Below are positions 2,747 to 63,247 of a stretch of DNA of 64,000 nt, in pieces; the first letter of the stretch is position 1; every line of letters starts with the position of its first letter. The notes below the pieces were generated by a model. That model saw only the letters and a program-made list of their open reading frames with translations, was not told the origin of the DNA and did no database searches. Position numbers and translations under genes: made by a program. Location of the stretch: the NCBI GenBank assembly GCA_934149365.1, contig CAKPEI010000002.1, positions 139,767 through 203,766 on the forward strand, written 5' to 3'. Source of the DNA: an uncultured Clostridia bacterium. GTDB lineage: Bacteria > Bacillota > Clostridia > TANB77 > CAG-465.

Positions 2747-4141
2747 TTGAATATAGATGCAGTTATAATAATTATATATTTATTAATAATACTTTTAATT
2801 GGTTTGGTGTCTTCAAGGAAATTAAACACAATAGATGATTTTGCGGTGTCTAATGTAAAATATGGAAAAACAGTTATTTTCATTACTATGTGCTGTTCCT
2901 TTTTAGGTGGTGGCTTTTCATTTGGTAATGCTGCAGAGGTATATAAAAATGGTATAGGAAATATATTTGCACTTTTTGGGTTTGGCATAGGTCAAATTTT
3001 TATTGGAAAATATATAGCAACAAAAATGGGAAGATTTGAGGGCTGTATTTCAACTGGAAACATAATGGAAAGAATGTATGGGAAAAGAATGCAAGTTATA
3101 ACAGGGATACTTGCTACCATAATTTGTTCAGGAATATTAGGAGCACAAGTTAGCGTTATGGGAAATATATTTTACGCATTTATGGGAATACCTCCTGTAG
3201 TTGGTGTAATAATTGGTTTTGGTATAGTATTAATATATTCTACAATGGGTGGAATAAAAGCTGATATAATAACGGACATAATTCAGTTTGGTATTTTGAT
3301 TATAGGAATACCGTTTTTAGTTATATATGGAACCCATGCTGCAGGTGGAGTGACAAATGTACTAACTAGTGTACCAAAAGAATATTTTAATATTTTTAAT
3401 AATAGTAGTATAGGAAGTTTCCTTTCAGTATTTTTTACACTTATGATAGGAGAAATGCTAGTGCCACCATACATACAAAGATTATTGATTGGTAAAGAGG
3501 CACAAGATACATCTAAAGCTACAATAATGAGTGGTTTCGCATCGTTTATTTTCTTTATTTTGACTGGTCTTGTTGGACTTATATCATATAGTATAGATAA
3601 AAATATGGTTCCAGAAATGGCTATGATAGGAATCATACGAAAGGTACTTCCTGTAGGACTTAGTGGGGTGATTATATCGGCTATGATGGCCATAGTTTTA
3701 TCAACTGCTGATTCTTTTTTAAATAGTGCAGCTGTTAGTGTTATAAATGATGTGTATTTACCTTTAAAGCAAGGAAATGTTGGTCAAAAAGAAAAACTAA
3801 AGATAGTAAGAATTGCAAATATAATCATAGGAGTAATAGCAGTACTAGTGGCATTACTTGTACCTAGACTTTTAGATATATTAACATTATCATATAGTTT
3901 TTGGGCACCTACTTTACTTCCGATTTTACTTCTTTCTATATTGGGACTTAACTTGAGTAAAAAATCAGTTTGGATAGGTGTAATTTCAGGAATAGGAAGT
4001 TCCCTATACTGGAATTTGATATTAAATAAATCATATAGCATTGATGGTCTTTTAATAGGTTTTGCTATTAACATGATAATAACTGTATTATTACATTTCT
4101 CTAAGAAAGTTATATATGTTAAAATAAACTCTAAGACATAG
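2747..4141 (+). CDS. sodium:solute symporter (SSS) family transporter
   Basis: 464-aa polytopic membrane protein with SSS-like segments (GGGFSFGNAAEVY, ST(A)DSFLNSAA...). TTG start with AGGAG 9 nt upstream. Confidence 0.6.
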   Translation: MNIDAVIIIIYLLIILLIGLVSSRKLNTIDDFAVSNVKYGKTVIFITMCCSFLGGGFSFGNAAEVYKNGIGNIFALFGFGIGQIFIGKYIATKMGRFEGCISTGNIMERMYGKRMQVITGILATIICSGILGAQVSVMGNIFYAFMGIPPVVGVIIGFGIVLIYSTMGGIKADIITDIIQFGILIIGIPFLVIYGTHAAGGVTNVLTSVPKEYFNIFNNSSIGSFLSVFFTLMIGEMLVPPYIQRLLIGKEAQDTSKATIMSGFASFIFFILTGLVGLISYSIDKNMVPEMAMIGIIRKVLPVGLSGVIISAMMAIVLSTADSFLNSAAVSVINDVYLPLKQGNVGQKEKLKIVRIANIIIGVIAVLVALLVPRLLDILTLSYSFWAPTLLPILLLSILGLNLSKKSVWIGVISGIGSSLYWNLILNKSYSIDGLLIGFAINMIITVLLHFSKKVIYVKINSKT

Positions 4142-17897: not shown

Positions 17898-17926
17898 TTG
17901 AAAAAAGTTTTTAGATATAGTAGAAT
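17898..17926 (+). promoter_or_regulatory. promoter of leader L1 (TTGAAA-N17-TAGAAT)
   Basis: Consensus-like -35 and -10 hexamers with a 17-nt spacer, about 40 nt upstream of the leader ORF's ATG. The three paralogous leaders carry the same architecture. Confidence 0.45.
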
Positions 17927-17967
17927 AAATGCGTAGAGTTTTAACATAGAAAGAAGAGGTGAAATAT

Positions 17968-18048
<81 letters not shown>

Positions 18049-18109
18049 AAATGAAGCTACAAAAGTAGCTGTATTTGGCGTGCAAGAAATATATATGAAA
18101 AATATAGAA

Positions 18110-18147
18110 GTTAGTTATGTATAAAAAAGTACATAGCTAACTTTTTT
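18110..18147 (+). terminator. intrinsic terminator/attenuator of leader L1 (12-bp stem + TTTTTT), 34 nt upstream of the gene's ATG
   Basis: GTTAGTTATGTA-taaaaaag-TACATAGCTAAC followed by TTTTTTCTGC. There is no room for another promoter before ATG 18182. Confidence 0.6.
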
Positions 18148-18181: not shown

Positions 18182-19786
18182 ATGAAAAAACAAAGAAAAG
18201 GAATATCACTAGTAGTACTTACAATAACAATAATAGTGTTAATAATACTAGCAGGAGTAACAATATTAACAATATCAAATGCAGACTTAATAAATAAATC
18301 GACTGAAACTGCATTTAGGTCAAATATATCAAATTATTTAGAAGAGTATAACGCATGGTTATCGATAGAAAAAATGAAACATAGAGGTAATTTAGAAATA
18401 TCAAAAATAAATGCATCAAATAAAGTTGCATATAACGGGAATTATATAACAGATATAATAAAAAATATAAAGAGTGAAGATATAGAAAAGTATGAAATAA
18501 TAGGTGGGAATTTAGTATATACAGGAACAGGAGAGAAAGATAATACTAAATTAGAAAATGAAACAAAATGGGCAAAAGAAGTAGGTTTGAAATCAGTAGA
18601 AAAAGCAAAAGGAGAAGAAGATACAATAGTATTTACCAATACCACAAGTGATAGTAGATATAACGATTTAAAAGTGTGTGGAAGCAGTGAAAATGGAGTA
18701 ACTGGTTTAAGTGAAATATCACTTACAGTAACACAAAACTTGATAGATAATGGCTTCGGAGAGTACAAAGATGGAACGAACTTTTCATCATATGTGGCTA
18801 ATATTCCAAGTGAAAAAGTAAAAGGTGGAATATCTTGCTTTTACACTGAAGAAACAGGAGGCTTTCACCAAAATTGTAGAATCAAAGACTATATTACAAT
18901 AGATAGAAATAAAAAGTATGAAATATCCATGTATGTAAAACCAAATGTTGTTGGTGAAAGGATATATTCAGGACTTATGGAATACGATGTGGATAAATTA
19001 TTAGTAAAGGCAGAACAAGTAATGTATATACCAGATACACTAACATATCTTACAGAAGATTTAAAAAATGGAGATACAGTAGTACATTTAGATGATGTAA
19101 GTAATTTTGTGAATAGTACTCAAACATATAAAATGGGCTTTATTTTTTGGAATTATAAAGATAGTACAGGGCATTTGTATGAACCATTGACGTACTCATT
19201 AAATACATGGAGTGATTTATATACAGCAGATAATGTAGATAAAACAAATAACACAATAATATTAAAAAGCGCATGGAATAAAGGGACTATTAAGGCAGGA
19301 ACAAAATTAAGTCAATGTGATAGCGGAAGTACTTTTAATTATTCACTTGATTTTAATATTAAGGAGTCAACAGACTGGGAATATAGGCATGAAACTATTT
19401 CTGGTGTGGGTTTTGGCCGTACTGTGTTTAGAGCTGCTACAAAATATGTTCAGTGGTTTATAATGCCAAATTATAACTATATAGAGGGCGGAGGAGCTAA
19501 GGTAGCAAATATAATCTTTGCAGAAAGTGATAAGTATAATAAGATATATACAATAGATATGACAGGACATGAACCATTAAGAACAATGGAAGATGGAACA
19601 AGTGATTATATAGATTTTAAGACAAAGAAGATAGTAAGAAATGTAGGAGTAAATAATGGAACAATGTATAAATTAAGTAGTGTAACATATGAAGATATAC
19701 TACTTCCAAATATTCCAATATATGAGAGGAATACCGCAATAACATTAAATCAAACAGGAAGGCTAGAAGGAACATACCTAAAATAA
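18182..19786 (+). CDS. prepilin-like N-terminus protein, paralog 1 (MKKQRKG|ISLVVLTITIIVLIILAG..., large variable C-terminal domain)
   Basis: Basic N-terminus, K-G, then a ~25-aa hydrophobic helix, as in type IV (pseudo)pilin or class III signal peptides, but without Glu+5. The N-terminal region is shared with the genes at 35486, 38954 and 60954. GGGAG ribosome-binding site. A 12-bp perfect hairpin lies 3' of the gene. Confidence 0.55.
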   Translation: MKKQRKGISLVVLTITIIVLIILAGVTILTISNADLINKSTETAFRSNISNYLEEYNAWLSIEKMKHRGNLEISKINASNKVAYNGNYITDIIKNIKSEDIEKYEIIGGNLVYTGTGEKDNTKLENETKWAKEVGLKSVEKAKGEEDTIVFTNTTSDSRYNDLKVCGSSENGVTGLSEISLTVTQNLIDNGFGEYKDGTNFSSYVANIPSEKVKGGISCFYTEETGGFHQNCRIKDYITIDRNKKYEISMYVKPNVVGERIYSGLMEYDVDKLLVKAEQVMYIPDTLTYLTEDLKNGDTVVHLDDVSNFVNSTQTYKMGFIFWNYKDSTGHLYEPLTYSLNTWSDLYTADNVDKTNNTIILKSAWNKGTIKAGTKLSQCDSGSTFNYSLDFNIKESTDWEYRHETISGVGFGRTVFRAATKYVQWFIMPNYNYIEGGGAKVANIIFAESDKYNKIYTIDMTGHEPLRTMEDGTSDYIDFKTKKIVRNVGVNNGTMYKLSSVTYEDILLPNIPIYERNTAITLNQTGRLEGTYLK

Positions 19787-35088: not shown

Positions 35089-35117
35089 TTGAAAAAAGAA
35101 AATAGATAAGGTAAAAT
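35089..35117 (+). promoter_or_regulatory. promoter of leader L2 (TTGAAA-N17-TAAAAT)
   Basis: Same TTGAAAAAAG... architecture as the L1 and L4 promoters. Confidence 0.4.
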
Positions 35118-35160
35118 TAGAACTTGAGAAGAAAAGAAAAAATAACAAAGGAGAAAAGTT

Positions 35161-35292
35161 ATGTTGGCAATAATGCGTGCAAGTGTTGAAACTCTAGAGA
35201 GAAGTACAACTAAAAATATAGCTACAAAAGTAGCTTTAGTTTGCATGCAAAAAATAAATTATATAAAAAACATAAAGTTAGGTATATACTAA
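35161..35292 (+). CDS. leader peptide ORF L2 (43 aa, MLAIMRASVETLERSTTKNIATKVALVCMQKINYIKNIKLGIY), long form ending in the terminator loop
   Basis: AAAGGAGAA ribosome-binding site. Its C-terminal half is homologous to the alternative-frame extensions of L1, L3 and L4 (ATKVA.F/C.QKI...). The stop TAA sits in the loop of the terminator hairpin. Confidence 0.4.
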   Translation: MLAIMRASVETLERSTTKNIATKVALVCMQKINYIKNIKLGIY

Positions 35293-35315
35293 GAAAGTAT
35301 ATAGCTAGCTTTTTT
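35276..35315 (+). terminator. intrinsic terminator/attenuator of leader L2
   Basis: AGTTAGGTATATAC-taagaaa-GTATATAGCTAGCT (14 bp, 1 mismatch) followed by TTTTT. Confidence 0.55.
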
Positions 35316-35485
35316 GAGCTATATGTAAAAGATAAAATAAAGGTATAAACATAGTAAATGCAATTAAAAATGATTGCAAAAATTAAATTAATGTGAAATA
35401 ATATGTATATATTAAAATAATTTGTTTAAAGAATACGAGGGGGTAAAAAATATGGGAACAAATAAAAAACGGTATATCATTAATA

Positions 35486-36652
35486 GTGTTAGTAATAACA
35501 ATAATAGTGATGATAATTTTAGCCGCAGCAATAATTTTATCACTATCAAATAACGGAATAATAGGAAAAGCAGATAAAGCCAAAATAGATAGTGATACAG
35601 CAAGTTTAAAAGAGTATGTAAACACATTAAGAGCAGAGTATGAGCTAATGACAGCAGATGAAAGAAATAGGAAAACATTTGAAGCATATGCAAATGCCAA
35701 ACTGGAAGAAAATGGCTATAAAGGAGCTGCCATAGATGTAGATGGCAAAGTACATTCTAACTTAACTGAATCAGCAAAGACGGCAATAAAAGCAGGAATA
35801 AAAGTAGGAGATAAAGTTGAGGGGTATATATTAACAGAAAAAAGTTATACAACAAGTGGTGAAGAAAATGATGGTATAAAACAAACGTTAAAAACAGATA
35901 CATCAGTAACATGGAAATATATAGGAATAGGAGAAGATGGAAACTTAGAGATAGTAGCAGATATTTCAGCCACTGAAATTTCTAAGTCTGCTGCAGAATA
36001 TAAAATATCGTTATTAGCAACTGGTGGACCAACAGAAGAAACGGGAACTTCTAAGAAAACTTTGACGTTATCAGGAAAAGGTGGATATTTAAATGGACCA
36101 GCAGAACTAGATAAAGCGTGTGCAACACTATATTCAGTAGATGGAAAAGGAACAGCAAAAAGTATGAACATAGACCATGTAACAAGAATATTAGGTTATA
36201 CAGGAGAAAAAGGTTCATATTTGGATGCAGATGGTAATTACGTAAAAACAGCAGAAGCAATGACAATAGGAGAAATAGAAAAAAAACTTGGAACAGAGCT
36301 AAGGTATAGAACAACACCAGATGGAAAAGATATATCAACATATAAATCAGACGATTACTATATAAATAAAACAAGTGATGTAAGTAAAATGCAAAATGCC
36401 GGAAATGTAGGACTAGTATATGGCTCAACAGAATATTGGCTTGCCTCTTCGTCTGTCTATGCAGATTTCAGTAATAAATGTACAGAATTTTATATGCGTT
36501 ACGTGCAATTAGAAGGAGTGGATAGATTTGCTATGTTTAAGTCATTTAATTACTGGGATAAATTTTCATGTGCCATTCGACCGGTAGTTTCATTAGCATC
36601 TAATATTCAGATAGAAAACGGAAGAAATGTTGGTACTTGGGTTATAAAATAG
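35486..36652 (+). CDS. prepilin-like N-terminus protein, paralog 2 (closest to paralog 4); apparent frameshift at the 5' end
   Basis: The ORF track begins at GTG 35486 (MLVITIIVMIILAAAIILSLSNNGIIGKADKAK...). The paralog-consistent ATG at 35452, with a GAGGGGG ribosome-binding site, is out of frame because of an A6 tract at about 35464-35469; A5 would restore MGTNKNGISLIV.... Confidence 0.55.
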   Translation: MLVITIIVMIILAAAIILSLSNNGIIGKADKAKIDSDTASLKEYVNTLRAEYELMTADERNRKTFEAYANAKLEENGYKGAAIDVDGKVHSNLTESAKTAIKAGIKVGDKVEGYILTEKSYTTSGEENDGIKQTLKTDTSVTWKYIGIGEDGNLEIVADISATEISKSAAEYKISLLATGGPTEETGTSKKTLTLSGKGGYLNGPAELDKACATLYSVDGKGTAKSMNIDHVTRILGYTGEKGSYLDADGNYVKTAEAMTIGEIEKKLGTELRYRTTPDGKDISTYKSDDYYINKTSDVSKMQNAGNVGLVYGSTEYWLASSSVYADFSNKCTEFYMRYVQLEGVDRFAMFKSFNYWDKFSCAIRPVVSLASNIQIENGRNVGTWVIK

Positions 36653-36839
36653 CTGACAACCTGACATTTTAGTCGAAACACCTGATAACAGGGGAACAGA
36701 GGCGTAAAATAAGCCGCCCAACATATTTAAAATTGCAGGAAACTGCAATTTTTTTATGCAAATAACAAATAAGACATAATACTTGAATAAAATATTGGAA
36801 AATGATAGAATTGTAATTAAATTAAAATGGAGGGAATAT

Positions 36840-38618
36840 ATGATACTTGAAAGTTTCGCTATTGCTACTTTTGGTTTAACAGAATTTACTAAAACACAGC
36901 ATTATAGCCTAGAAGAAGATAGTAAAGAAAAAATATTATCAGATGGATTATATCACTTTACTAGTAAAGATGCCGCAGAAAAAATAATGAAAGACGGTTT
37001 TCTTAGACCATCTAAAGGACGTATTAGAAATCATATGGGAAAAGATAAGGTGTATATGTTTGCAGGTATGCCTGATGTTGATAATTTTGCTAAAAATTTA
37101 CCAGCAAAGTTAAACCCATTTATATCAGGGAATTTAGAATTTTCTGCAGTTAAAGTAAATCCGGATGAGCAAGAATTACACAAGTTTAAGGAAAGATTAC
37201 AAGATAGCGCTATTGTATATGAAGGTAGATATGATATAGGAAATAAAGGTAAAGCAGTAGACTTAGTAGTGGATATTGATAACTCAGGAAAATGCACGTT
37301 TAGAGAAAAAACAGAGGAAGAAATACAAAATGGCTATATGCCAAGTGAAGAATTGCTAAAGTATATAGAAGACCATAAGATATCTAAAAAATTTAGTGCT
37401 ATAAGATTACTGGGAATGGAAGTTAAATTTGGAATGTCTTCTATACCTAAAATGCCTAAGAGAGTATATAGAGATTTTAAAGATAAAGCACAAAGAAGAA
37501 AAGAAATAAAAGAATTTGAAAAATATTCATTTAGTATGAATATAAAAGATAGTGATGATGTAGAAAATTTATATAATGTAAATTGCGATAAGCTTGAATT
37601 TTATGGAGATAAGAAATTAAATAGAGTTAATATAGAAAAGATAAATAAGCAAACTGGTGAAAAGGAGTCATATAGATGTTATGCAGACGGCCACTTATTA
37701 AATTTGGGTGATGAAGCTGCAGCAATGTATATGCAAAAAATAGAAGAGGCAAGTCAAAATGGCATGTTGAACAAAATAAATGGAATTGACTATATAGGTC
37801 AGCCTATGTTAGATACAGAAGAAGGTCGTATAACGATAGGTGTTGATGCTAAATTTAATGAAATGTTAAGGGAAAGAAATAGAGCAGAAGAACTTGGAAA
37901 TATAACCAATAAGTCGTACGATATATTTAATACTAAAAAGAAAGAATATTATAGCAAACATCCTTTTAAGAGAATAATGGAAAAGCTAACTGGTAAGGCG
38001 CCTAAAAGACTAGAAAGCAGAGATAATATAGGAAAGTATACAAATAATAAATTAGACAAAGTCGCTATAGAAAATATAGAAACACGTGGGCAAGAAGATA
38101 ATTCATTTATAGCTAGTAAAAAGTGTGAAATATCATATAAAGAAGGAAGCGATTATACAGTATTTTTAGGAGATACAGTTGATTTGGATGGTAAACTTTT
38201 AAGAAAAATAATGATATCTGAAGAAAATTATTTAAATAAAAATGCTATGGATACAGTAAAACTTCCTCAAAATTACTATATTGAAGATTTTGATGTGGAA
38301 AGTGTAAATAAAAAAGATTTGGCTAAGCTTTTTTCTACATTAGGAAGAAATCAAAGAGAAGATAATATAAAAATAGAAAATAATGGTTTTGTTGGAACTT
38401 ATTTAGGCGGAGTAAATATAGATAAAAAAGGCAAAGTTAAAGGAATGACTTATGATAGTACGTTAAAAGAAAAGTATGGTCAGAATATTAATATAGATAA
38501 AGAGGAAGATTCACTTGATATGTCTGAATACGTGAATGCAGAGGAAGTTATAAAAGAGAATTATTCTAAAGGAAATGAATCAAAAGAGATAGAAAAAAAT
38601 ATGGAAAAAGAATTGTAA
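36840..38618 (+). CDS. hypothetical protein (593 aa) lying between two prepilin-like paralogs
   Basis: ATG 36840 after a GGAGGG site; the ORF track starts at 36783. N-terminus DGLYHFTSKDAAEKIMKDGFLRPSKG; no transmembrane helix or signal peptide. Confidence 0.45.
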   Translation: MILESFAIATFGLTEFTKTQHYSLEEDSKEKILSDGLYHFTSKDAAEKIMKDGFLRPSKGRIRNHMGKDKVYMFAGMPDVDNFAKNLPAKLNPFISGNLEFSAVKVNPDEQELHKFKERLQDSAIVYEGRYDIGNKGKAVDLVVDIDNSGKCTFREKTEEEIQNGYMPSEELLKYIEDHKISKKFSAIRLLGMEVKFGMSSIPKMPKRVYRDFKDKAQRRKEIKEFEKYSFSMNIKDSDDVENLYNVNCDKLEFYGDKKLNRVNIEKINKQTGEKESYRCYADGHLLNLGDEAAAMYMQKIEEASQNGMLNKINGIDYIGQPMLDTEEGRITIGVDAKFNEMLRERNRAEELGNITNKSYDIFNTKKKEYYSKHPFKRIMEKLTGKAPKRLESRDNIGKYTNNKLDKVAIENIETRGQEDNSFIASKKCEISYKEGSDYTVFLGDTVDLDGKLLRKIMISEENYLNKNAMDTVKLPQNYYIEDFDVESVNKKDLAKLFSTLGRNQREDNIKIENNGFVGTYLGGVNIDKKGKVKGMTYDSTLKEKYGQNINIDKEEDSLDMSEYVNAEEVIKENYSKGNESKEIEKNMEKEL

Positions 38619-38632
38619 AAACATAAAAAATA

Positions 38633-38661
38633 TTGACAGGTAAAAAAATATAATATAAAAT
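38633..38661 (+). promoter_or_regulatory. promoter of leader L3 (TTGACA-N17-TAAAAT)
   Basis: Consensus hexamers with a 17-nt spacer, 40 nt upstream of the leader ORF. Confidence 0.45.
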
Positions 38662-38699
38662 CAAATGTAGAGAATAAAAAACAAAGGAGTGAAAAAATA

Positions 38700-38771
<72 letters not shown>

Positions 38772-38834
38772 TATCTAGAAATAAACTAGATAGAGGTTTT
38801 TGCACTCAAAAAATAGATATATTAGATAAAATAA

Positions 38835-38874
38835 AGTTAGTTATACAGAGTAAAAAGTATAGCTAGCTTTTTTG
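38835..38874 (+). terminator. intrinsic terminator/attenuator of leader L3
   Basis: AGTTAGTTATAC-agagtaaaaa-GTATAGCTAGCT followed by TTTTTT. Coordinates may be off by 1. Confidence 0.55.
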
Positions 38875-38953: not shown

Positions 38954-39904
38954 ATGATGAAAAACTTAAGAAAAAACAAAAGCGGAATATCACTGATAGT
39001 ACTAGTAATAACAATAATAGTAATGATAATACTAGCCGCAGCAATAATATTATCGCTATCAAACAGTGGAATAATAGGAAAGGCGAATACTGGTAAGACA
39101 GAATATTCTTTAGCTAGCATAAGAGAAAAAATAGGACTTGAATTGTTAGAGCAAAAGCTTAATGATAATGTAAGCAAAGAAAACGTGGAAAGTGTACTAT
39201 CAAAATATGGAGAAGTAACGTATGAAGATGAAGGAAAAAATATAATTAGGGGAGTTAAAGTAAAAGAATATGATAAAGAAATATTAATTTCAGAAATAGC
39301 AGAAGAATATGCACTTCCAAAGATAGAAGACTTTGAATATACGTTTGATTTTGAAATGGCGGCAAAGCAAATTCCGCTTGATCAAGGAAATTTGAATAAA
39401 TCGAGTAATGTAGTTGCTGTGTCATATAAAAAAGGCGAAATAGAAACAGCATGGTTTACAGATAGTTTTTCAAAAAAAGGTCTTAAGCTTTGTTATAATA
39501 ATTCTCCAAAAGAAACGGGTAAAAGAAATGTACAAAATGTAAACTTTAGTACATTAAAAATTGGATCTGGACAATTTTCAATGAGTGTAACAGGAAATAT
39601 GACAGAGTGGACAAGTGAAACGTTGAAATGGAATAAACCAATAACCAAGGAAATAATTTTGGAAAATACATCGTCTGAGGAAATGACTGGTAGTTACATA
39701 GTATATTTAGTGGGAAAAGATATAGAAGTAAGTGATAATGTACAAAAGTGTTTAAAGATAAGAATAAAGGATGAAAATGGAAATCTTGTAAAAGTATTTT
39801 CACCTAGAGAAGTGTTTTCTGGAACTACACTTGTAACAGGAGTTATACAACCAGGTGAAACAGCCAAATATACCATAGAATTTGAATTACATTTTGATAT
39901 ATAA
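38954..39904 (+). CDS. prepilin-like N-terminus protein, paralog 3 (MMKNLRKNKSG|ISLIVLVITIIVMIILAAAIILSLSNSGIIGKA..., distinct C-terminal domain)
   Basis: ATG 38954 after a GGGAGG site; the ORF-track start at 38936 overlaps the ribosome-binding site. The N-terminal 45 aa are near-identical to paralogs 2 and 4. A terminator hairpin follows at about 39918-39952. Confidence 0.55.
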   Translation: MMKNLRKNKSGISLIVLVITIIVMIILAAAIILSLSNSGIIGKANTGKTEYSLASIREKIGLELLEQKLNDNVSKENVESVLSKYGEVTYEDEGKNIIRGVKVKEYDKEILISEIAEEYALPKIEDFEYTFDFEMAAKQIPLDQGNLNKSSNVVAVSYKKGEIETAWFTDSFSKKGLKLCYNNSPKETGKRNVQNVNFSTLKIGSGQFSMSVTGNMTEWTSETLKWNKPITKEIILENTSSEEMTGSYIVYLVGKDIEVSDNVQKCLKIRIKDENGNLVKVFSPREVFSGTTLVTGVIQPGETAKYTIEFELHFDI

Positions 39905-47044: not shown

Positions 47045-47120
47045 GGGCGCATAGCTCAGTTGGGAGAGCATCTGCCTTACAAGCAGGGGGTCATAGGTTC
47101 GAGCCCTATTGTGCCCACCA
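47045..47120 (+). tRNA. tRNA-Val (anticodon TAC)
   Basis: GGGCGCATAGCTCAGTTGGGAGAGC..., anticodon loop CTTACAA, T arm GGTTCGAGCCC, CCA encoded. Confidence 0.85.
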
Positions 47121-47131
47121 TTTTTTTATTT

Positions 47132-47208
47132 GGCCTGGTAGTTCAGTTGGTTAGAACGCTAGCCTGTCACGCTAGAGGTCGTGGGTTCGAGTCCCATCCA
47201 GGTCGCCA
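47132..47208 (+). tRNA. tRNA-Asp (anticodon GTC)
   Basis: GGCCTGGTAGTTCAGTTGGTTAGAAC..., anticodon loop CTGTCAC. Confidence 0.85.
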
Positions 47209-47219
47209 TTTTTTTATAT

Positions 47220-47295
<76 letters not shown>

Positions 47296-47341
47296 ATAGT
47301 AGTACTAAAAGAAAATATGTTACATATAATATATTAAGAAC

Positions 47342-47417
47342 GCGGGAATAGCTCAGTTGATAGAGCGCTGCCTTGCCAAGGCAGAGGTCGCGGGTTTGAG
47401 CCCCGTTTCCCGCTCCA
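47342..47417 (+). tRNA. tRNA-Gly (anticodon GCC)
   Basis: GCGGGAATAGCTCAGTTGATAGAGC..., anticodon loop TTGCCAA. Confidence 0.85.
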
Positions 47418-47476
47418 AATTTTATGTACATAAGAAATGCTGCTTTGCATATGATGTAGTATAAAATATTATATAG

Positions 47477-47550
47477 GGCGCTATAGCCAAGTGGTAAGGC
47501 ACGAGTCTGCAAAACTCTGATCCCCGGTTCAAATCCGGGTGGCGCCTCCA
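47477..47550 (+). tRNA. tRNA-Cys (anticodon GCA)
   Basis: GGCGCTATAGCCAAGTGGTAAGGC..., anticodon loop CTGCAAA, T arm CCCGG-TTCAAAT-CCGGG; the short D loop is typical of tRNA-Cys. Confidence 0.75.
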
Positions 47551-60439: not shown

Positions 60440-60522
60440 AGTTATTATATCAGAAAAATATGGAAAGTTAAAGAAGAATGTGTTACAGAAAAATTACAAA
60501 TAAATAAATAATACCAAAAGTG

Positions 60523-60551
60523 TTGAAAAAAGAAATAATATATAGTAATAT
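60523..60551 (+). promoter_or_regulatory. promoter of leader L4 (TTGAAA-N17-TAATAT)
   Basis: Same architecture as the L1 and L2 promoters. Confidence 0.4.
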
Positions 60552-60592
60552 AAAAAGGTAAGAGAAAGAATAAAAAGAAAAGAGGTGAAAAT

Positions 60593-60655
60593 ATGTTAAC
60601 TAAAGAGCATGCAAACGGTATAACTCTAGAGAGAGCATACAATTTAAGAATATAG
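60593..60655 (+). CDS. leader peptide ORF L4 (20 aa, MLTKEHANGITLERAYNLRI) with a short (GA)3 tract
   Basis: GAGGTG ribosome-binding site. MLTK...TLER is conserved with L1 and L2. The alternative frame (minus 2 nt in the GA tract) extends to a TAA at about 60733, in the terminator loop. Confidence 0.4.
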   Translation: MLTKEHANGITLERAYNLRI

Positions 60656-60716
60656 CTACAAAAGTAGCTGCGTTTTGCGTGCAGAAAATAAAAGAATATA
60701 GTAAAGTAAAAAAAGA

Positions 60717-60756
60717 AGTTAGTTATACAGAGTAAAATGTATAGCTAGCTTTTTTG
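60717..60756 (+). terminator. intrinsic terminator/attenuator of leader L4
   Basis: AGTTAGTTATAC-agagtaaaat-GTATAGCTAGCT followed by TTTTTT. Confidence 0.55.
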
Positions 60757-60953
60757 CGTCTAAATAAAAAGAAAAGCAAAAATTAATTAAGGTATAATCA
60801 TGATAGTAAATCATGTAAATATACACAGCCATATATACATAAAAAACATAACCAAAAATACATAAAAGCAATTAAAAACAATTGCAAAATTTAAAGTAAT
60901 GTGAAATAATATGTATATATAAAAATTGTTCTAAGAAAATGGAGGAAAAAAGT

Positions 60954-62132
60954 ATGAGAACAAAAGTTAAACTAAAAGGCGGAATATCATTAATAGTATT
61001 AGTAATAACAATAATAGTAATGATAATATTAGCCGCAGCAATAATTTTGTCACTATCAAATAGTGGAATAATAGGGAAGGCAAATAAAGCAAAGACAGAT
61101 AGTGATACAGCAAATTTAAAAGAGTATGTAAATACCCTAAGAGCAGAATGGGAGTTAATGACAGCAGATGAGCAAACAGCAGAAGGTTCATTTGAAGCGT
61201 ATGCAAACAAAAAGCTAGAAAAGAGTGGCTACAAAGGAGCAGTAGGAGCAGATGGAGAAGTATATTCAAACTTAAATGAAAATGCAAGAAAAGCAATAGT
61301 AGCGGGAATAAAGGTAGGAGATGTAGTAACAGGATATACAGTAACATCGACTACATATACAACAGACGGAAGAGAGAATACATGTGACCAAAATAGCCAC
61401 ACAGAAACCAATCCACAACCACAAACCATAACAACAAATACAGATATAACATGGAAATACTTAGGAACAAATGCAAATGGAGAGCTAGAAATAATGGCAG
61501 ATTTATCAACGGCAAATGCAGTAGCAACAAATACAAAAGTAACGTTAGGAGGAAAAGGTGGATACCTAAATGGACCTGCAATGTTAAACACAATATGTGA
61601 AAAGCTATATTCAAAAGAAGGAGTAGGAACAGCAAGAAGTATGAATATAGATGATGTAAATAATATATTAGGATATACAGGACCAAAAGGAACATATTAC
61701 GATAATAATAATAATGAAGTAAAAACACCAACAGCATTAACAATAGGAGAAATAGAAAGTAAACTGGGAACGACATTAGGAAATGGAACAACACCAGATG
61801 GAAAAGACTTAGGAACATATTATGCAGATTATTACTATATAAATAAAACAAGTGATGTAAAAGAGATGGAAAATCCGGGTAATATAGATTTAGTATACAA
61901 TGCTAAAAATACGTACTGGCTTGCTTCTCCATGTGTCAGTATGGCTTTTGGTCTCAGCGATGCAAACTTCCTTGTACGCTGCGTTGGCTCTGCTGGCGTG
62001 GACGCGAGCGGTGCGTTCGGTTCGAATGTCTACTCTAGCATCTATGCGTATGCGGTTCGCCCCGTAGTTTCTCTAAAATCTAATATCCAGTTAACACGAG
62101 ATGCTGGGGAAACAGAATGGAAAATAAAGTAG
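60954..62132 (+). CDS. prepilin-like N-terminus protein, paralog 4 (MRTKVKLKGG|ISLIVLVITIIVMIILAAAIILSLSNSGIIGKA...; C-terminal YWLASP...AVRPVVSLKSNIQ)
   Basis: ATG after a GGAGG site; the ORF-track start 60939 lies inside the ribosome-binding site. The N-terminal ~110 aa and C-terminal ~130 aa are paralogous to the gene at 35486, with a divergent Thr/Asn-rich middle. Confidence 0.6.
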   Translation: MRTKVKLKGGISLIVLVITIIVMIILAAAIILSLSNSGIIGKANKAKTDSDTANLKEYVNTLRAEWELMTADEQTAEGSFEAYANKKLEKSGYKGAVGADGEVYSNLNENARKAIVAGIKVGDVVTGYTVTSTTYTTDGRENTCDQNSHTETNPQPQTITTNTDITWKYLGTNANGELEIMADLSTANAVATNTKVTLGGKGGYLNGPAMLNTICEKLYSKEGVGTARSMNIDDVNNILGYTGPKGTYYDNNNNEVKTPTALTIGEIESKLGTTLGNGTTPDGKDLGTYYADYYYINKTSDVKEMENPGNIDLVYNAKNTYWLASPCVSMAFGLSDANFLVRCVGSAGVDASGAFGSNVYSSIYAYAVRPVVSLKSNIQLTRDAGETEWKIK

Positions 62133-62470: not shown

Positions 62471-63247
62471 ATGAAATCAAAAGCTAAAAAAATTGATACA
62501 ACATTTCTTACTCCATTAGAGGTGTATAGTCTTGTTGTAAATGGAGATTTAAAAAAATTTCCAAATGGGTATATTACAAAAGAAAGTATGAAAGAAATTC
62601 TTCGGCAAGTTATTTTAGAAAAACTTCATATGTCGCGGGAGGAAATATGTCATACTATATCTTATCCATATCTTCGGAAGTATAAGTTAGGAGGTACAAG
62701 AAGGGCTTTTAATTCTTCCATTTTTTCATTGATAACTTATTGTTTTCCTGAGTTTGATATCAATTATTGGGAATTAAATAAAGTTGAGAATGGTTTCTGG
62801 GAGAAAGAGGAAAACAGAAAAGATTTCATGACATGGCTTGCTGAAAAAGAAGGCATTTGCCTAGATTCTATTCCTGATTTAACTAAAATCGATGCCAAAT
62901 TAATTCAAAAATATGGTGGAAGTAAAGCCATAAAGTATGGTGGAGGCGTATATGAATTAATAAAACTTGTGGCAATGGTGGATGTTAAAGAATGGCAAGT
63001 TATTAAAATGCCTGTTTGGACAGAAGAAAAGGTAAAGAACGCAGTGAAATGGCTTGTAGAAGAAAGGCTTAAGTGGACAAAAGAACAAGTTGTAGATGGT
63101 ATAAGTGCAAATGTTTTTTATGATAATGATTTAGGCGGTATGCTAAAACGTTATTGTAATCATAGTCCATTAAGAGCGCTTCAAATTGCTTATCCAGGTG
63201 AGTATACTAAGGTAAGAAATTCAAGGCCAGAATATCTAAGGCATTAG
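62471..63247 (+). CDS. hypothetical protein (258 aa)
   Basis: ORF with an AGGAGG ribosome-binding site; no recognised motif. Confidence 0.4.
   Translation: MKSKAKKIDTTFLTPLEVYSLVVNGDLKKFPNGYITKESMKEILRQVILEKLHMSREEICHTISYPYLRKYKLGGTRRAFNSSIFSLITYCFPEFDINYWELNKVENGFWEKEENRKDFMTWLAEKEGICLDSIPDLTKIDAKLIQKYGGSKAIKYGGGVYELIKLVAMVDVKEWQVIKMPVWTEEKVKNAVKWLVEERLKWTKEQVVDGISANVFYDNDLGGMLKRYCNHSPLRALQIAYPGEYTKVRNSRPEYLRH

Follow-up and report, generated by a model that had tools for sequence, protein, structure and literature searches.

PilB (vWA module) and PilC (lectin module) of Streptococcus sanguinis are modular type IV pilins, as are CofB, TcpB, and ComZ; such pilins are predicted or have been shown to be located at the filament tip, and their lectin-type modules bind host glycans (PMC8179133, PMC9934059). 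Type IV filaments are also capped by minor pilins that lack the glutamate at position +5 (Glu5), i.e., the K subunit of the GspK/PilX class and S. sanguinis PilA (PMC6497953, PMC9934059). The glycine at position -1 (Gly-1) is needed for processing by the prepilin peptidase; processing can proceed without Glu5, and the assembly of filaments has required it wherever this was tested (PMC6497953). Glu5 is regarded as characteristic of type IV pilins and as essential to their function, and the tools used to detect such pilins rely on it. A precedent for regulation is the pil1 locus of Streptococcus gallolyticus, in which GCAGA repeats in a leader peptide determine whether the ribosome destabilizes a terminator, as shown experimentally (Danne et al. 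2014; PMC3894217), and the switch results in stochastic ON/OFF expression of a surface appendage (PMC3894217). Here we describe a 64-kb stretch of contig CAKPEI010000002.1 (the window, meaning the whole stretch analyzed) from an uncultured, spore-forming gut Clostridia bacterium, which carries four genes (c1 to c4) whose products share an N-terminal module. The reading that we favor, with moderate confidence, is that these genes encode modular type IV pilin-like adhesins without Glu5, each controlled by an attenuator in a repeat-containing leader. An earlier note on this DNA had described the genes as a family of prepilin-like surface proteins, and our results support that description as essentially right.

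A shared N-terminal module with different C-terminal domains

The four genes are as follows.

18182 to 19786, + strand: c1, modular pilin-like gene (534 amino acids [aa]), N-terminus MKKQRKG-ISLVVLTITIIVLIILAG, cargo a carbohydrate-binding module (CBM)-like beta-sandwich
35452 to 36652, + strand: c2, full-length paralog of c4, with a 1-nucleotide (nt) frameshift in an A6 run at 35464 to 35469
38954 to 39904, + strand: c3, pilin-like gene (316 aa), N-terminal 45 residues as in c4, C-terminal domain unrelated
60954 to 62132, + strand: c4, modular pilin-like gene (392 aa), leader MRTKVKLKG-G, pilin-type helix ISLIVLVITIIVMIILAAAIIL, alpha1-C helix, and alpha/beta ectodomain

The module is present in exactly four copies in the window (tblastn; E values of 3e-11 to 3e-31 against c4), and the four open reading frames (ORFs) with a common N-terminus listed in the earlier note were all recovered by an ORF check, tblastn, and alignment. 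Genes c1, c3, and c4 are intact, and c2 is frameshifted. The basic start ascribed to all four proteins holds for c1, c3, and c4, but not for c2, for which the start at 35486 is a GTG within the hydrophobic helix. A short basic leader, a Gly residue, and the segment ISL(I/V)VL(V/T)ITIIV(M/L)IILA are near invariant in all four, and residues L13, I15 to V19, I21 to A24, I28, L29, S32, and N33 are invariant in the four-way alignment, which also confirmed that SLSN(S/N)GIIGKA is common to c2, c3, and c4. Residues 11 to 45 are near invariant (entropy of 0.03 to 0.06 bits) among 69 homologs that are elsewhere 55 to 83% identical, and the same module is kept across hundreds of proteins with differing C-termini. 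The family comprises approximately 2,959 clusters at 50% identity (E ≤ 1e-3). Four of its genes occur per 64 kb in the window, and at least six c4-type copies are present on a single 335-kb contig. In a Clostridia metagenome-assembled contig (L011; L numbers denote contigs from other samples or related genomes, and P numbers denote related proteins), two GISLI-type modules (749 to 865 and 3346 to 3462) lie within 3 kb of each other; thus, in some genomes the family members are in tandem rather than scattered. One protein, P0150, which resembled a stand-alone pilin module, was rejected as such; it is part of a broken c4-type gene located where a contig ends.

The residues around the predicted cleavage site follow a consistent pattern. 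Position -1 in 238 distinct relatives is Gly in 230, Ala in 6, and Glu in 2, in a motif-anchored count that did not require Gly. Across 218 distinct N-termini, the leader is 3 to 10 residues long (median, 7) with K or R at -2, Ile occupies +1 in 87%, Thr occupies +9 in 90%, and +5 is Val (70%), Ala (17%), or Glu (8%), the Glu cases being canonical GFxxxE relatives. All four window copies have Val at +5 in place of the Glu by which type IV pilins are recognized; the absence of Glu5 noted earlier for the window genes thus extends across the family. The predicted cleavage site is followed by a hydrophobic helix of approximately 25 residues (ISLIVLVITIIVMIILAAAIILSL). AlphaFold 2 models contain helices at residues 13 to 36 and 39 to 68 of c4 (pLDDT, 90.3) and at residues 10 to 31 and 34 to 66 of c1, with globular domains after them; as modeled, the N-terminal helices of both proteins are pilin-length alpha1 helices. 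When a profile of the four N-termini was compared with 177,635 PDB sequences, five matches were obtained at E ≤ 10, all of them type IV pilins, including Geobacter PilA-N (the best, with an E value of 0.0067), a fimbrial protein, PilA, and MshA. The alignment is in register at Gly-1, Ser/Thr+2, Leu+3, Ile+4, and the ILAA motif and continues into alpha1-C. The resemblance to a class III signal that had been proposed is borne out by the Gly-1 pattern, the helix of approximately 25 residues, and this profile match to pilins only. Pfam, NCBIfam, and PHROG searches with the four proteins returned nothing meaningful, and the motif strings had no literature match.

The C-terminal parts differ. Proteins c2 and c4 share 55% identity from end to end (E value of 7e-129), as had been claimed; the "conserved C-terminus" attributed to them is confined to the motifs YWLAS and VRPVVSL, and the segment between these motifs (residues 331 to 365) is the most variable part of the c2/c4 family, with an entropy of approximately 2.4 bits. 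The Thr/Asn-rich center (residues 141 to 160 and 181 to 200) is variable and contains insertions and deletions, in agreement with its description as hypervariable. For c1 and c3, the C-terminal parts have no counterpart among the other proteins of the set (E > 0.3), and their designation as unrelated stands. The motif pair W-x-L-A-S ... V-R-P-V in c4 is, we assume, like that of DUF1566-type domains; c4 has no Pfam DUF1566 match. The c4 ectodomain ends in what appears to be a C-type-lectin-like module that spans the two motifs (YWLAS...VRPVVSL), and c2 has the same type of cargo. The closest known domains are the C-terminal domain of Legionella Lcl (8Q4E) and the N-terminal domain of the Thomasclavelia ramosa immunoglobulin A (IgA) protease (9QA6), at a sequence identity of only 14 to 20%; the identity of the top fold match was taken from PMC12237041. 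A Foldseek comparison of the c4 model with the PDB gave no match with an E value below 1. The c1 cargo is a CBM-like jelly-roll beta-sandwich related to phage tail-fiber and tail proteins, and the c3 domain had no sequence match in Pfam, NCBIfam, PHROGs, or the PDB.

Both characterized cargo types also occur on recognizable pilins. Protein P0328, which starts with MKKGFTLIELL and matches Pfam N_methyl, aligns with residues 97 to 386 of c4 (E value of 9e-28). Relatives of the c1 cargo include 17 proteins with GFxxxE N-termini (several with precomputed PF07963 annotations) and 20 of the GISLIV/GITLIA type, others being phage-tail-protein-like by their N-termini and Pfam matches. Proteins c1 and c4 have the composition that defines modular pilins, i.e., a pilin module joined to a separate module that is not specific to pilus biology. 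A phage origin of the N-terminal module was considered and rejected: c4 had no phage match, its alignment found no viral contig, and the coding pattern of GISLIVLVITIIV and that of its sister GITLIALVITIIV had zero and three matches, respectively, in 2.9 million viral contigs. Sharing with phages is limited to the c1 cargo (tail proteins). A diversity-generating retroelement acting on the variable loops was likewise dropped, the divergence spanning the whole ectodomain; no reverse transcriptase was found among the window ORFs scanned with Pfam, a few ORFs lying outside the scan.

The module search also returned proteins of 118 to 123 aa starting with MKKG-ISLIVLVITIIV, two of which were located on long contigs of related Clostridia (L030 and L031; 26 to 28% G+C) that carry sporulation genes. 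The cluster in these contigs encodes a PilM/N-like protein (Pfam PilN; E value of 1e-5), small membrane proteins, the small pilin (P0238 in one contig and, in the other, P0250 [119 aa] in tandem with a paralog, the two tandem copies being in L031), a protein with an A24 N-terminal domain (E value of 2e-31), two more pilin-like ORFs, and the assembly proteins PilB (TIGR02538; E value of 1.5e-119), PilT (E value of 4e-85), and PilC (E value of 1e-50). Residues 7 to 59 of c4 are 66% identical to P0250, and other small pilin-like ORFs of the cluster likewise lack Glu5 (G|FTMVS and G|ITMMS). NCBI names the PilB, PilT, and GspF neighbors and labels the cluster pilin a "hypothetical protein." The occurrence of small GISLIV proteins within PilB/PilT/PilC clusters indicates that this N-terminus is a pilin N-terminus in the lineage; the window-type N-terminus would then be that of the pilins of a related lineage, whose presumed major pilin lacks Glu5 as well. 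The only PilD-like gene of the clusters is as follows.

L031, 10515 to 11318, and L030, 10530 to 11354: PilD-like gene with an A24 N-terminal (zinc-finger) domain

The C-terminal half of its product is pilin-like and has a class III signal (...KSG-VFLVEIAIAF in L031), so that the protein looks like a fusion of a PilD N-terminal part and a pilin.

These clusters bear on the most serious alternative, which we nevertheless consider unlikely, namely, that the four proteins are ordinary N-terminally anchored (type II) membrane proteins whose lectin-like modules are tethered to the cell surface by a pilin-derived, uncleaved signal anchor, without any filament. Such an arrangement would fit the lack of Glu5 and of a match to the N_methyl models, the occurrence of the genes singly among housekeeping genes and away from pilus clusters, and the lack of a peptidase domain in the PilD-like gene of the related clusters. 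It leaves unexplained the near-absolute conservation of 35 residues across unrelated ectodomains and the residue at -1 (97% Gly and 2.5% Ala), a preference for which a plain signal anchor would hardly account, and it sits poorly with the small, pilin-sized proteins at the major-pilin position of PilB/PilT/PilC clusters.

Repeat-containing leaders and predicted expression states

A homologous leader of approximately 250 nt precedes all four genes and is present in exactly four copies in the window (blastn). Its elements are, in order, a promoter, a ribosome-binding site (RBS), a short ORF with an AG or AC tract, a stem with an inner hairpin, and a terminator.

17898 to 18147, + strand: c1 leader, with promoter TTGAAA-17-TAGAAT (17898 to 17926), hairpin (18055 to 18070), and terminator (18110 to 18147)
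17968 to 18048, + strand: c1 leader ORF, with (AG)17 at 18003 to 18036
35089 to 35402, + strand: c2 leader, with promoter (35089 to 35117), hairpin (35220 to 35235), terminator (35277 to 35315), and second promoter-like site (35374 to 35402)
35161 to 35292, + strand: c2 leader ORF, 43 aa in the long frame, with its stop inside the terminator and (AG)3 at 35196 to 35201
38633 to 38873, + strand: c3 leader, with promoter TTGACA-17-TAAAAT (38633 to 38661), inner hairpin, and terminator (38836 to 38873)
38700 to 38771, + strand: c3 leader ORF, MSTRVLETIGRV(TH)n K, with (AC)15 at 38736 to 38766
60523 to 60755, + strand: c4 leader, with promoter TTGAAA-17-TAATAT (60523 to 60551), inner hairpin (60653 to 60670), and terminator (60718 to 60755)
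60593 to 60655, + strand: c4 leader ORF, MLTKEHANGITLERAYNLRI, with (AG)4 at 60628 to 60635
60882 to 60910, + strand: second promoter-like site of c4, TTGCAA-17-AATAAT with TG, between the terminator and c4
60607 to 60617/60671 to 60682 (c4), 38711 to 38724/38796 to 38808 (c3), and 35175 to 35185/35238 to 35248 (c2): long-range stem, approximate positions

The promoters match 10 to 11 of 12 consensus positions in c1 to c3 and 9 of 12 in c4. The terminators consist of a 12- to 18-bp hairpin and a U-run, with fold z-scores of -3.8 to -6.2. The independent loci L013, L016, L019, L020, and L026 have leaders built in the same way, and the leader was always found directly upstream of a family member and in the same orientation; no Rfam family covers the leaders. 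Every leader contains two frames that stop 5 to 21 nt past the tract and a third frame that stays open for 86 to 128 nt and ends 15 to 48 nt past the start of the 5' arm of the terminator, as determined by script; an open frame of this length is expected by chance in 6 to 9% of composition-matched sequences for each leader. The long-frame peptide is partly conserved (...NIATKVA.F.VQ...). RNAalifold, applied to seven leaders, recovered the terminator and the inner hairpin, both with compensatory changes. The long-range stem that appears when single sequences are folded was missed, probably because c3-type leaders misalign. In that stem, the 5' part of the leader ORF pairs with sequence past the inner hairpin and encloses the tract, and c2, c3, and c4 preserve the pairing with different sequences (GCAUGCAAACG/CGUUUUGCGUGC versus GAGUGC..AAACC/GGUUU..GCACUC). 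A direct repeat, TGTTACA-N6-ATTACAAAT, lies just upstream of the c4-type leader promoter (approximately 60470 to 60520) and is also present in L001, L002, L020, L021, and L026; to judge from its form and position, it may be a regulator-binding site.

Tract lengths were compared between samples by using metagenome assemblies. Only c1, with (AG)17, and c3, with (AC)15, have long tracts, and those of c2 and c4 consist of three to four units. The c3 tract has 15 units in the window, L003, and L005, 16 in L006, and 13 in L004, with identical flanks. The c1 tract has 17 units in the window and is (AG)18 in L008 with near-identical flanks; 18 units correspond to the long frame, yet two single-nucleotide polymorphisms in L008 create an earlier stop. 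The c4-type leaders have tracts of 3, 4, 13, or 15 units. The proposal that each copy has its own switchable leader is upheld insofar as leaders with between-sample tract variation and attenuator-like frames exist, and it is narrowed by the restriction of long tracts to c1 and c3. Read in this way, c1 (n = 17), c3 (n = 15), and c4 (n = 4) are predicted to be OFF in the window, and c2 (n = 3) has its leader in the long frame and its gene frameshifted. With four units, the c4 leader ORF stops 63 nt before the terminator; with three or six units, it is predicted to extend into the terminator loop.

Related loci differ in their leaders. In L002 both the leader ORF and its terminator have been lost, the leaders of L001 and L021 are degenerate, and contigs L004, L005, and L007 end within the leader. 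The upstream neighbors of c4 differ among the window (60440 to 60960), L001, and L002 (9560 to 10010), with c4 and the downstream genes being the same, which reflects either recombination at the repeated leader or chimeric assembly. In four distant relatives of c1 (P0476, P0481, P0505, and P0529), a (CA)n-coded (HT)n repeat lies inside the pilin ORF itself, a few residues before the KKG-ITLVALV site; the attenuator leader peptide appears to be fused in frame to the pilin, and the tract would act as a direct translational switch located in the part that a peptidase would remove.

The c2 gene has an RBS and an ATG at 35452, with the helix one base out of register. The A6 run places the ATG out of frame with the helix, and removal of one A restores MGTNKNGISLIV. 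The frameshift is identical in the window, L023, L024, and L025, and 12 contigs carry the same called protein; c2 would be either a pseudogene or a locked-off copy. Two cases of an internal start were examined (c2 and P0033 in L026), and both are caused by a 1-nt change in the A-run of the lysine-rich leader, the change that inactivates P0033 lying at about 1445 to 1460 of L026. In both c2 and L026, the gene is frameshifted and the leader ORF preceding it has the long (ON) frame. These A-run changes show signs of either decay or a second layer of control.

We regard as quite improbable a second alternative, in which the leader is an independent small gene (for a 40- to 56-aa peptide or a small RNA) with its own terminator and the tract has no effect on the pilin-like gene. 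The partial conservation of the long-frame peptide fits this proposal, as do the separate promoter-like site past the terminator of c2 and c4, which is conserved in related loci even where the leader has been deleted, and the fact that both long-frame leaders (c2 and L026) precede frameshifted genes. However, no second promoter-like site was detected upstream of c1 or c3, and in c1 only about 20 nt separate the terminator from the RBS. The constant position and orientation of the leader directly upstream of family members and the HT repeat inside the pilin ORF of the distant relatives tie the repeat to pilin expression.

Proposed mechanism, evidence against it, and genomic setting

We propose that the family is a very large and unannotated group of modular type IV pilin-like proteins of low-GC, spore-forming gut Clostridia. 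Its N-terminal module would be a class III signal and pilin alpha1 in a lineage-specific version, with Ile+1, Val/Ala+5, and a conserved Thr+9. For cleavage, incorporation into a filament or its tip, ligand binding, surface display, and ON/OFF switching with its rates, we infer the following course. After insertion by Sec, the protein would be held in the membrane by its helix, probably be cleaved after Gly-1, and enter a type IV pilus machine; in related genomes, the small pilins belonging to such a machine have this N-terminus too. The large subunits would reside at the filament tip, a position suggested by the lack of Glu5 together with the bulky C-terminal modules, and would present a ligand-binding module, i.e., a C-type-lectin-like module (c2 and c4), a CBM- or phage-receptor-binding-type beta-sandwich (c1), or the c3 domain. 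Slippage of the tract would put the short ORF into another frame. Two of the three frames would halt the ribosome just past the tract, the terminator would form, and the gene would be OFF; in the third frame, approximately 28 further codons would be translated into the terminator stem, termination would be prevented, and the gene would be ON. If many such cassettes switched independently, the displayed adhesin would vary.

Several observations weigh against this proposal. The PF07963 (N_methyl) and TIGR02532 models, suggested earlier as a check, had no match at E ≤ 1 in any of the four window proteins, and Glu5 is absent despite its requirement for assembly in every system tested (PMC6497953). 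The window contains no pilus-assembly genes by Pfam, as the earlier note had stated (no T2SSE, T2SSF, or peptidase A24 genes among the ORFs scanned); linkage to assembly genes was seen on L030 and L031. The peptidase A24 catalytic domain was undetected in the only PilD-like gene of those clusters, so a functional peptidase, if any, must be encoded elsewhere. The tract differences come from short-read metagenome assemblies rather than from reads. The leaders of c2 and c4 may not act as switches, and with their short tracts (three to four units) and second promoter-like site these genes are probably much less switchable. The c2 gene is frameshifted in every sample aligned (four samples), and about one-third of the best c4 homologs are called from an internal Met23; these internal starts suggest that many copies may be decaying.

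Least convincing among the alternatives is that the proteins are substrates or pseudopilins of a type II secretion-like or competence-like filament, released or transiently displayed rather than serving as tip adhesins of a long pilus, which we hold to be very improbable: the cluster pilins weakly resemble GspG (E values of 0.045 to 0.09) and a "prepilin peptidase-dependent pilin" (E value of 0.026), far below curated cutoffs, and Glu5-less GspK-type subunits cap short pseudopili (PMC9934059), but the related clusters encode a PilT-type retraction ATPase (E value of 4e-85) and a PilM/N-like protein, which are typical of type IVa pili and not of type II secretion or Com systems.

A broader possibility, which we put forward tentatively and hold to be somewhat doubtful, is that a whole lineage of gut Clostridia has Glu5-less pili (Val5 and Thr9), the major pilin included, a PilD-like protein with a pilin-like tail in place of a protease domain, and dozens of interchangeable lectin- or CBM-bearing tip pilins. 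One of these would cap each pilus, and each would come from a dispersed cassette that the dinucleotide repeat of its own attenuator turns ON or OFF separately. If the pilin nature of these proteins is confirmed, the Glu5 rule for assembly is not universal and a substantial group of pilins is missed by current tools. If the switching is also real, dozens of separately phase-variable glycan-binding modules per genome would amount to adhesive or antigenic variation, i.e., a combinatorial wardrobe of adhesins hidden from current annotation. Known variation in uncultured spore-forming gut Firmicutes arises mostly through invertible promoters, and we are aware of no description of such adhesin variation in these bacteria. 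The leader-repeat attenuation of S. gallolyticus would be extended to a widespread and multiplied regulatory cassette; to our knowledge, this type of switch has been reported from one genus only.

The window itself has a G+C content of approximately 30% and a steady positive GC skew over its 64 kb. A Pfam scan identified ordinary chromosomal genes, i.e., those for a sigma factor, Tex, thymidine kinase, Maf, RNase Y, YmdB, topoisomerase, a P-type ATPase, SMC, a GH3 hydrolase, a GidA-family protein, HolA, a spore germination protease, Zur/ZnuABC, aldolase, and pyruvate formate lyase. An Rfam scan of the whole window returned only tRNAs and 6S RNA.

47045 to 47547: cluster of five tRNAs (Rfam)
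767 to 915: 6S RNA (Rfam; 48 bits, barely over the gathering score)

Between c2 and c3 lies an ORF of 611 aa with a TTG start (36783 to 38618) and no obvious signal, for which Pfam and PHROG searches gave no match; its product is kept beside c2 and c3 in other samples as a 592-aa protein. A gene for a DUF4046 protein (62471 to 63247) is directly downstream of c4 in every assembly examined. Exact-sequence matches to window proteins were from human-gut metagenome contigs and one NCBI contig, and scans with the c4 alignment found 4 loci among genome contigs and 7 among metagenome contigs.

Comparison with known systems

Like PilB and PilC of S. sanguinis, c1 and c4 combine a short pilin module with a bulky module of a ligand-binding type, and the cargos of c1 and c4 also occur on N_methyl pilins. 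PilB and PilC have the canonical GFxxxE motif and are encoded by single copies in the pil operon, whereas the proteins described here have Val or Ala at position 5 and are encoded by dispersed single-gene cassettes. Unlike PilB and PilC, each of the window genes has its own repeat-containing leader, and the proteins are missed by pilin hidden Markov models.

As in the GspK-class subunits and S. sanguinis PilA, the proteins described here have no Glu5 with which to neutralize the N-terminus of the overlying subunit, and a place at the extreme end of the filament would be compatible with this; the degenerate class III signal likewise escapes bioinformatic tools. In the known Glu5-less systems, however, a single subunit per machine lacks this residue and the major pilin keeps it, whereas in the related clusters the pilins at the major position lack Glu5 too.

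The leaders share with S. gallolyticus pil1 a promoter, a slippage-prone leader ORF, and an intrinsic terminator, with a longer peptide taking the ribosome into the terminator, a step predicted here from sequence alone. The pil1 switch uses a GCAGA unit and controls sortase-assembled pili, whereas the tracts in the window are AG or AC dinucleotide repeats upstream of type IV pilin-like genes. Unlike pil1, the window leaders contain a further conserved stem and hairpin, located between tract and terminator, and the module is present in many copies per genome, each predicted to control one gene. Each component thus has a known precedent, i.e., modular pilins, Glu5-less tip pilins, and the pil1 attenuator; what is new is that they occur together, in a family of this size, with Glu5 missing even from the cluster pilins and with the genes invisible to annotation.

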